Source: Erysipelotrichaceae bacterium MTC7 (GTDB lineage: Bacteria > Bacillota_I > Bacilli_A > Erysipelotrichales > Erysipelotrichaceae). From it: a stretch of DNA of 32,000 nucleotides. The translations under genes were made by a program, and so were the position numbers. Within the stretch, counting starts at the first letter, position 1, and every line of letters begins with the position of its first letter. The notes under the pieces are model-generated. The model was not told the origin of the DNA, did no database searches, and saw only the letters and a list, made by a program, of their open reading frames with translations. Shown in pieces: positions 19,752-20,468 of this stretch. The stretch covers positions 30,001-62,000 of the forward strand of contig LVZN01000002.1 of assembly GCA_001695645.1 (NCBI GenBank), read 5' to 3'.

Positions 19752-20468
19752 ATGGAAATCAGGTACAACGTAACAGGCGCACAGCGCAAGGAACTGGTAA
19801 AGGCCATCGCCGATACCACGGGAGCAAAGGCAAAGTACATGGGAATGCCCACGGCAGCCTACGAGATCGACTACTTCACGGTAACCAAGGACGGAATGCT
19901 CATCTTCGATGACAGAGCGGACAGCGAGGAAGTGGAGCAGGTGCTTGAGGCCATCGCCGCCGCAGGGTTCGACTGTGAGCCGCAGGACGGAGAGGATTCG
20001 GAGTTTGAGGAAGTATCCGAAACCGAAGAGAACGCACCACAGGCGGCCACAGACGGGCTTACGGTGGCGGTTCCGAGGGACAGCCTTTCGGACGCCGCCA
20101 TTGAGAACCTGCAGAGGATCGTGGATTCCAAGGCGGCGCTCATGAAAAAGGCAATCGGCACGGACAGCCTTCCGATTGAAGTGACTGACGAGAAGGTATC
20201 CTTCCCCTGGTTCACGGAGATGGACGGCGATTCCGCAAGGGCATACACGCACCTTGTCTCCGCACTCTGCGAGATGGCGAGGAACGCCAAGCGAGTGACC
20301 GCCACGGAAAAGGAAGTCGACAACGAGAAGTACGCATTCCGCTGCTTTCTCCTGCGTCTGGGCTTCATCGGTGCTGAGTACAAGACCGAACGTAAAATCC
20401 TGCTGAAGAACCTCACGGGCTCCTCGGCTTTCAAGAACGGAGGTACTGACCATGAGATTTCCGAGTAA
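19752..20468 (+). CDS. 238-aa protein: apparent catalytically gutted paralog of the downstream amidoligase (shared N-terminal strand-helix and C-terminal module, acidic linker replacing the core)
   Basis: C-terminal [38 protein letters not shown] versus amidoligase [38 protein letters not shown]. N-terminal [23 protein letters not shown] resembles amidoligase VEVEMNSIKRSKAAKIAADFFG. No HIHIG-type core. Confidence 0.6.
   Translation: [238 protein letters not shown]

Follow-up and report, generated by a model that had tools for sequence, protein, structure and literature searches.

The window analysed here is a 32,000 nt stretch of contig LVZN01000002.1 (positions 30,001 to 62,000 of the forward strand) from Erysipelotrichaceae bacterium MTC7. 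Its gene content and the related genomes mark it as part of a siphophage or prophage of Firmicutes, of the Ca. Heliusvirales type. The gene in question, ORF1 (19752–20468, + strand), encodes a protein of 238 aa and is located upstream of a gene for an Amidoligase_2 enzyme of 316 aa (21137–22087, +). Two small genes encoding a 78 aa DUF4314 protein (20452–20688, +; PF14192, E = 8e-32) and a 102 aa DUF6809 protein (20678–20986, +; PF20648, E = 4e-20) separate them. The amidoligase gene is followed by those for a gamma-glutamyl cyclotransferase (GGCT; GGACT/AIG2-like; 22187–22660, +; PF06094, E = 1e-12, phrog_2520) and a small Zn-ribbon protein (22617–22850, +; phrog_2945, E = 1.6e-24), the latter of which has only weak zinc-ribbon matches in Pfam. 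An earlier annotation made from the letters of the DNA, hereafter the sequence-only reading, had called ORF1 a catalytically gutted paralogue of the amidoligase and the two a pseudoenzyme/enzyme pair.

ORF1 is preceded by a ribosome-binding site (AAAGGAGG, 19735–19742) located 9 nt ahead of the ATG, and its homologues begin with MEIRYN or MEVKYN. These starts agree, and the open reading frame was thus called correctly at 19752–20468. ORF1 has no match in Pfam even at E ≤ 0.1, and the NCBIfam and PADLOC scans were also empty. Whereas the ORF at 21137 reaches 184.7 bits against PF12224 (aa 13–254 only), ORF1 fails the gathering score of this family (22 bits). Both proteins match the same region of the PHROG profile phrog_2443 'amidoligase enzyme', ORF1 with aa 1–237 (E = 7.7e-69) and the amidoligase with E = 2.2e-116. 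In the representative library, the ORF1 family falls into 3,350 clusters at 50% identity, and its alignment contains 36 nearly invariant columns, none of which is at a catalytic position. The number of clusters and the invariant columns argue that ORF1 is a real, constrained gene. Firmicutes phages of the Heliusvirales type carry it as a near-core gene, and the family is likewise near-core in the Heliusvirales-type prophages of Lachnospiraceae, Oscillospiraceae, Negativicutes and streptococci. Among the family representatives, one (P0160) carries the N-terminal domain twice, and the tails of four others (P0167, P0213, P0258 and P0263) contain a short conserved peptide, LAEALADAELIHGVN.

The relationship between ORF1 and the amidoligase is evident already in pairwise comparison. 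The strong high-scoring segment pair in BLASTP covers 68 aa (ORF1 163–230 and amidoligase 245–312; 43% identity, E = 1e-17) and spans the almost identical 38-residue strings pointed out by the sequence-only reading together with the Y..L..AL..MA helix that precedes them. The strings lie where they had been placed, with 22 of the 38 residues shared, except that one coordinate was off: the codon of K193 starts at 20328 rather than 20325. A second, weak segment pair aligns a 25-aa stretch of ORF1 with GVHIHIGANGHTPQTLRNLANIMAS of the amidoligase, a first sign that the linker of ORF1 does not stand in for the catalytic strands.

For profile–profile alignment, which the sequence-only reading had named as a check, we built a profile of 118 ORF1 sequences (50%-identity cluster representatives and four divergent phage members) and one of 38 amidoligases that are 24–99% identical to the window enzyme and include those of Faecalibacterium, Bacillus, Arthrobacter and Porphyromonas phages. 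ORF1 3–232 was collinear with amidoligase 19–314 in hhalign (99.9% probability, E = 3.5e-31). When the C-terminal module was cut from both profiles, the match was retained at 96.8% (E = 2e-10; 3–139 to 19–155), so the similarity extends well beyond the short motif. The N-domain of ORF1 alone (aa 1–78) aligned with amidoligase 19–112 at 84% (P = 7.7e-6; decoys at most 7%), which bears out the resemblance of the two N-termini that had been noticed by eye. The middle segment alone found the HxH strand and its helix (93.5%, P = 2.3e-7). As controls, a reversed version of the amidoligase profile and profiles of nine other, unrelated families encoded by these phages all remained at or below 7.7%.

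The two families are also bridged at the level of plain BLASTP by QPW62266, a 'virulence-related protein' of Clostridium phage CWou-2020b. This protein matches amidoligase 119–316 with E = 5e-29 and full-length ORF1 with E = 2e-27, and its alignment places LEVTFSMEGHTGVTLRNL against VHIHIGANGHTPQTLRNL and KGTLRFSF against KGTIEFRLF. In the AlphaFold2 (AF2) model of ORF1 (predicted local distance difference test, pLDDT, 90.1; predicted template modelling score, pTM, 0.59), strands and helices follow in the expected order. The best match of this model in BFVD was the amidoligase of Arthrobacter phage Salgado (probability 0.99, E = 2.2e-3), and three further amidoligases were among the top 40. 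Taken together, the sequence and profile comparisons indicate that ORF1 is a paralogue of the amidoligase that shares common ancestry with it along the whole length.

We then mapped the amidoligase elements onto ORF1. The N-terminal alpha/beta domain (aa 1–75; 19752–19976, +) corresponds to amidoligase aa 19–112, and its ExE strand now reads I-R-Y-N. AF2 models this domain with pLDDT >90, with strands at 2–4, 37–39, 42–44 and 49–52 and helices at 9–23 and 58–70. An acidic disordered linker (aa ~76–100; 19977–20051, +; pLDDT <50 for residues 81–94) separates the second helix from the strand that was once HxH and is placed opposite 'KSDASRG' of the amidoligase by hhalign. The linker varies in length within the family, and for many of the longer relatives the match to ORF1 is split into two stretches; in the three relatives that we inspected over their full length (P0126, P0175 and P0200; 315–382 aa), the acidic linkers are much longer. 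The strand that follows, DGLTVAVP (aa 101–108; 20052–20075, +), is a degenerate CGVHIHIG in which both histidines are gone, and KVSFPWF (aa 148–154; 20193–20213, +) is a degenerate TIEFRLF with E changed to S and R to P. The sequence-only reading had the acidic linker replace the catalytic core. This is not the case, since the CGVHIHIG and EFR strands persist as GLTVAVP and SFPWF and the linker is an insertion. The F-P-W that stands in place of E-F-R is itself nearly invariant in the ORF1 family (F in 117, P in 105 and W in 113 of 118 sequences).

Ten residues are invariant in the 38 amidoligases, namely E20, E22, D71, S73, E83, H120, H122, N211, E222 and R224, and all of them are substituted or deleted across the 118 ORF1 relatives. 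The family columns opposite these residues hold R/N/K, N, T, S/E/T, S/T/R/A or P, or are deleted; E20 stands opposite R/N/K, E22 opposite N, H120 opposite T and H122 opposite S/E/A. The segments around D71–E83 and 156–216 are largely missing in the family. ORF1 itself lacks ~12 amidoligase residues around the invariant E83, another 8 elsewhere in the N-domain and a stretch of ~60 from the interval 156–216, a core loss of ~80 residues in total. The window amidoligase keeps every motif residue and looks active. Thus, the verdict that ORF1 is gutted extends to its whole family, and we infer from these losses that ORF1 is without catalytic activity. Homology to an enzyme family, family-wide catalytic loss and strong conservation elsewhere are together what characterizes a pseudoenzyme, and ORF1 displays all three.

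The conservation of ORF1 is concentrated in its C-terminal region. The three-helix region (aa 159–232; 20226–20447, +; helices 159–178, 192–203 and 208–218 with pLDDT >90 in the AF2 model) includes the 38-aa module (20328–20441), which is the most conserved part of the family, with nearly invariant columns clustered at 191–226. Its counterpart in the amidoligase (21959–22072, +) is clade-specific and lies outside the Pfam model. The module is basic, and R197/R279, G204/G286, G207/G289 and R214/R296 (ORF1/amidoligase) are fixed, or almost fixed, in the two families. The module occurs in the amidoligases of Clostridia phages (Heliusvirales and FP_Taranis, degenerate in the latter) and is not recognisable in those of Bacillus, Arthrobacter and Porphyromonas phages. 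A hidden Markov model of the module retrieved 85 ORF1-family and 35 amidoligase-clade proteins, and nothing else, from 5,508 ORFs of 89 loci; no third carrier was found among the 149 family representatives, a search that did not extend to a database-wide census of architectures. As the module is confined to these two families among the proteins searched, it appears to be an inherited functional element and not a shuffled domain, and the proposal of a promiscuous docking or targeting domain is not borne out. The module most likely binds the same partner in ORF1 and in the amidoligase, as judged from its conservation. Co-evolution or gene conversion of the two modules within a genome was also considered and set aside; the effect of 0.7 percentage points was treated as negligible.

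To see which genes travel with ORF1, we compared the 80 best-matching loci per scan. A complete ORF1-to-TerL interval was present in 66 viral loci and in 52 prophage loci from one-genome-per-species bacterial assemblies (118 in total). DUF4314 directly follows ORF1 in 64/66 viral and 50/52 genomic loci (114/118 overall). In contrast, the amidoligase is present in 26/66 viral and 31/52 genomic loci (57/118 overall), where it is invariably accompanied by GGCT and the Zn-ribbon gene (57/57). GGCT accompanies ORF1 in the same proportion (57/118), and the remaining 61 of the 118 complete loci have ORF1 without amidoligase, GGCT or Zn-ribbon gene. When loci were instead chosen via the amidoligase, ORF1 was found upstream in 63 of 64. 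In some, more distant Heliusvirales phages, the amidoligase seems to occur without ORF1, as the ORF1 query matched only the module there. DUF6809 occurs in a minority of loci and is an optional member of the ORF1 transcription unit. These counts suggest that ORF1 and DUF4314 form a conserved unit, to which the amidoligase cassette is added as an optional module. The pairing proposed by the sequence-only reading thus holds insofar as the two proteins are paralogues and ORF1 is catalytically empty, but the pair does not look obligate: DUF4314, and not the amidoligase, is the constant companion of ORF1.

The reading frames of ORF1 and DUF4314 overlap, mostly by 4–32 nt in the family and by 17 nt in the window, which suggests that the two are translationally coupled. 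In the window (20452–20468), the ORF1 stop codon lies inside the first codons of DUF4314, with ORF1 ending in ..HEISE and DUF4314 starting with MRFPSK. The C-terminal glutamate was considered as an acceptor site and rejected, because the ..ISE ending arises where the gene runs into the start codon region of DUF4314. In Blautia phage NatCom_2932 (locus L084), an amidoligase–GGCT pair lies between ORF1 and DUF4314, and the GGCT ahead of DUF4314 ends in ..HGISE (L084:3964-4470 and 4454-4849); this arrangement and the ..GISE ending suggest that the cassette was inserted by recombination at the overlap. A further tie between ORF1 and DUF4314 is an extension domain of 55 aa common to one ORF1 representative (P0127) and to the DUF4314 protein of NatCom_2932 (E = 2e-12). 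This Cys-containing extension occupies aa 275–329 of P0127 and aa 75–127 of L084:4454-4849, with the pattern CY..EW.SR..A..F...SE.SRY.K...EL..G..VCTD. No ORF1–DUF4314 fusion protein was found among the 149 representatives. DUF4314 itself gave weak, sub-threshold Pfam matches to BPL_C (E = 0.041) and SH3_12 (E = 0.093), which hint at an SH3-like protein.

On this evidence, we regard ORF1 as probably a miniaturised, catalytically dead descendant of the Amidoligase_2 clade that now serves as a non-catalytic binding or adaptor protein together with DUF4314. ORF1 would descend in full length from the phage Amidoligase_2 clade that bears the C-terminal three-helix extension, and the elements of the fold still follow one another as in the enzyme: the strand-helix-hairpin-helix unit comes first, then what was the HxH strand and the helices behind it, what was the ExR strand, the final helix of the core and, last, the module. 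None of the conserved residues for binding metal, nucleotide or substrate is left, ~80 core residues are gone, and the disordered acidic linker is a gain. Through what remains of the cradle, and chiefly through the basic module with its near-invariant residues, ORF1 may hold the type of ligand or partner that the ancestral enzyme bound by means of this module. ORF1 would presumably act with DUF4314 late in infection. The amidoligase–GGCT–Zn-ribbon unit is an optional cassette in about half of the relatives, with its own copy of an upstream repeat, and where it is present ORF1 may also compete or cooperate with the amidoligase on a shared partner.

Several points weigh against this interpretation. 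The loci compared are best matches and not random samples. The superposition of the ORF1 model on the BFVD amidoligase is poor globally (template modelling score 0.37, root mean square deviation 15.6 Å), and the pTM of only 0.59 makes the relative placement of the two halves of ORF1 uncertain. Fold searches against the PDB with the full model and with a separate model of the C-terminal half (pTM 0.82) yielded nothing significant, with best E-values of 0.03 and 0.27, and Dop was found among the matches only at E ~0.3–1.2. As the top matches, KH-domain RNA-binding proteins, TTK kinase and Dop, are all non-significant (E ≥ 0.03), we did not assign a fold on the basis of the PDB; in sequence searches, no PDB entry matched the profile of either the amidoligase or ORF1. 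The loss of canonical residues is not strict proof that all activity is gone. Finally, the modules of ORF1 and amidoligase are marginally more alike within a genome than between genomes (52.9% versus 52.2%, permutation p = 0.004), which could hint at some co-adaptation or simply reflect shared ancestry.

The last of these points leads to the role proposed by the sequence-only reading, in which ORF1 would be a pseudoenzyme dedicated to the amidoligase next to it, as a regulator, decoy or substrate-presenting protein, with the module as a docking or hetero-oligomerisation interface. The paralogues do share a locus, each with a copy of the cassette in front, ORF1 is upstream of 63 of 64 close amidoligase relatives, and the modules of one genome are very slightly more similar (p = 0.004), but this effect amounts to no more than 0.7 percentage points. 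ORF1 occurs without amidoligase, GGCT or Zn-ribbon gene in 61/118 complete loci, and the module is nearly invariant throughout the family though about half of the sampled genomic loci lack the enzyme. Moreover, DUF4314 is the invariant neighbour, and the amidoligase seems to be present without ORF1 in several Heliusvirales phages, the query having matched only the module there. As the amidoligase is missing from half of the loci, regulation, decoy activity or substrate presentation cannot be the general function of the ORF1 family; ORF1 could regulate the amidoligase or act as its decoy only in those phages, about half, in which the enzyme is encoded, and we consider such a dedicated partnership unlikely. 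We are similarly doubtful that nucleic acid is the target of ORF1 and DUF4314, be it in the modification or packaging of DNA or in late transcription, with the basic two-arginine C-terminal helices binding DNA or RNA. The position of ORF1 between terS (14848) and terL (23986), next to a SAM synthetase, two DNA methyltransferases and Nmad4, would suit such a role, as would the invariant R/K residues in which the module is rich, the sub-threshold SH3-like matches of DUF4314 and the KH-domain RNA-binding proteins at the top of the non-significant PDB matches. Nevertheless, neither sequence nor fold comparison gave a significant match to a nucleic-acid-binding domain in Pfam, NCBIfam or the PDB, the small terminase has a recognisable gene of its own, and ORF1 as a whole is acidic in composition.

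It is very unlikely that ORF1 is instead a substrate or carrier for gamma-glutamyl-type adducts, which would be placed on the acidic linker or the C-terminal glutamate and removed by GGCT. The linker is rich in Glu and Asp, and the last residue is Glu in 61 of the 149 family representatives, which often finish with (V/I/L)SE; however, the linker is conserved neither in sequence nor in length, the terminal ..ISE results from the way the gene overlaps the start of DUF4314 and also recurs as ..GISE in the GGCT of NatCom_2932, and half of the ORF1 genes have no amidoligase nearby. The least probable of the explanations considered is that the module alone is shared by domain shuffling and the rest of ORF1 is unrelated, or that ORF1 is active with different residues. 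Outside the module, ORF1 and the amidoligase are <20% identical, and Pfam does not recognise ORF1, as this explanation would have it. The comparisons contradict it: collinear profile matches persist without the module and for each sub-domain with clean decoys, the bridging protein covers amidoligase 119–316 at the BLAST level, and ~80 core residues and all motif residues are gone. A more speculative elaboration of the adaptor role, to which we give little credence at present, is that ORF1–DUF4314 would be a non-catalytic 'reader' or targeting scaffold for a phage or host macromolecule, into which the amidoligase–GGCT–Zn-ribbon unit would plug as a 'writer/eraser' via the homologous module. In view of the location between terS and terL, a target such as DNA or a component of packaging or late transcription would fit. 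If true, this would amount to a gamma-glutamyl-type modification system of modular build in a gut phage order that is among the most widespread.

The gene neighbourhood of Amidoligase_2 links it to the AIG2/GGCT cyclotransferase in Firmicutes, and the window amidoligase (21137–22087) is a bona fide PF12224 member with such a GGCT partner. Amidoligase_2 proteins reportedly were described as GS-like COOH-NH2 ligases of phages and prophages by Iyer et al. (2009, Mol Biosyst 5:1636). ORF1 resembles PF12224 in its collinear homology, in the order of its secondary structures and in its phage neighbourhoods. Unlike ORF1, PF12224 members reach the Pfam threshold and possess the motif residues (ExE, D.S, E, HxH, N and ExR) and the ~80 core residues, whereas ORF1 has the inserted acidic linker and is linked to DUF4314 rather than to GGCT. 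Another pair of paralogues with the GS-like ligase fold is PafA and Dop of the Pup system, which act in one system on one shared partner and are both catalytically active. PafA and Dop keep their active-site residues and ORF1 keeps none, Dop is only a weak, non-significant fold match (E = 0.27–1.2), and no gene for a Pup-like tag is present.

Current labels obscure this distinction. The phrog_2443 profile takes in both families, and its name implies an enzyme, which is misleading for the ORF1 sub-family devoid of catalytic residues. As PHROGs lumps the two families, Pharokka names both 'amidoligase enzyme'. In the phage phi13alpha of C. clostridioforme LM41, for example, ORFs 35 and 37 are both annotated as 'amidoligase enzyme' and GGCT is ORF 39 (PMC11318856). 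By sequence, ORF1 also belongs with the 'virulence(-related) proteins' of Streptococcus Javan phages, CWou-2020b, Erysipelothrix phage phi1605 and Gardnerella phage vB_Gva_AB1, whose genes occupy the same position ahead of the terminase genes. Members with this name are 25–95% identical to ORF1 over the full length; the Javan-phage 'virulence-related protein' is 45–50% identical, and the representatives P0019 (89%), P0070 (80%) and P0117 (75%), named 'virulence protein', match with full query coverage. We found no functional evidence behind this name, and the sequence and context of ORF1 suggest no virulence role. The labels 'virulence protein' and 'amidoligase enzyme' thus mislead counts of virulence factors, auxiliary metabolic genes and defence genes in gut viromes.

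The PHROG grouping of the two families was already known, and the recognition of the ORF1 family as an inactive derivative is apparently new; we found no paper that describes it as an inactive amidoligase, although a prior mention in Iyer et al. 2009 is possible. A dead amidoligase tied to DUF4314 is a concrete starting point for experiments. The module common to enzyme and non-enzyme offers a pull-down handle on the long-predicted amidoligase–GGCT system, and identifying its ligand should also reveal the target of phage amidoligase–GGCT systems.

The sequence-only reading had further placed both genes behind copies of the same promoter cassette. The cassette is indeed repeated, but in four copies rather than two, each found at the head of a small transcription unit. 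Copy 1 (19682–19739, +) ends 13 nt before the ORF1 start codon and follows the consensus GAAAT-N2-CTTG(A/C)TA-N9-TTCAGAGTGAT(A/T)(T/A)ATGTAC. The repeat search and motif scan located the others ahead of the amidoligase (copy 2; 21039–21096, +), DUF7698 (copy 3; 22904–22961, +) and Nmad4 and TerL (copy 4; 23513–23570, +), and the four copies together conform to GAAAT-N2-CTTG(A/C)TA-N9-TTCAGAGTGATATATGTACATACC. Copies 3 and 4 also have longer flanks in common (22825–22955 and 23434–23564). The core TTCAGAGTGATATAT, allowing up to three mismatches, is found upstream of ORF1 homologues in at least 39 of the 80 viral loci, and also upstream of Nmad4, DUF7698 and amidoligase homologues in related phages.

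The cassettes are putative promoters, and a simple sigma-70 consensus scan calls none of the four copies on the + strand. The phage encodes a sigma-70 region-4 protein (1956–2627), and a related prophage, that of Tn6164, is annotated with an extracytoplasmic function (ECF) sigma factor. Together with the silent scan, this raises the possibility that the cassettes are promoters dependent on a phage sigma factor, and they may also be recombination joints for the exchange of gene cassettes.

The intergenic region from the amidoligase stop codon to just before the GGCT ribosome-binding site folds into a long nested RNA hairpin (22085–22168, +; minimum free energy −51.4 kcal/mol, z = −5.8). An inner GC hairpin followed by CTT(A/T)(A/T)GGTGGTAGAAGG is kept in most of the ~60 distinct related intergenic sequences listed, in which the sequences of the outer stem differ. 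Rfam gave no match on the whole window, the hairpin included, and RNAalifold did not yield the nested stems from a MAFFT alignment that was too poor to recover them. The hairpin could be an uncharacterised attenuator or processing element between amidoligase and GGCT.

The remaining genes of the window are consistent with its phage origin. Complete genomes of related phages have been placed in Ca. Heliusvirales (PMC11283538), and the nearest prophage copies are found in Faecalispora, Lachnospiraceae, Oscillospiraceae, Megasphaera and others. Faecalispora sporosphaeroides DSM 1294 (locus L090) has an ORF1 that is 88% identical. The sigma-70 region-4 gene is the first in the listed order, followed by those for DUF2800/PD-(D/E)XK, an Enc34-like single-stranded DNA-binding protein, PolA, VapE and an SNF2 helicase, and then by HNH (14374–14787) and the P27-type small terminase terS (14848–15480). 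A SAM-synthetase-like protein, a ParB-N6 methyltransferase and a C5 methyltransferase are encoded in this order between terS and ORF1. Downstream of the Zn-ribbon gene are DUF7698 (22975–23451), behind cassette copy 3, and the nucleotide-modification-associated domain 4 gene Nmad4 (23596–23874), which lies directly upstream of terL with a cassette copy of its own. TerL (23986–25596) is followed by portal and capsid genes. The terS and terL genes are ~8.5 kb apart with ORF1 in between, and the block that separates them holds the SAM-synthetase-like gene, the two DNA methyltransferases, ORF1–DUF4314, the amidoligase cassette, DUF7698 and Nmad4. In several relatives without the amidoligase cassette, Nmad4 is the only gene recognised from DUF4314 to terL. 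The gene table of the Tn6164 / Thermoanaerobacter prophage lists HNH, terS and SAM synthetase in the same order, and the arrangement looks similar.

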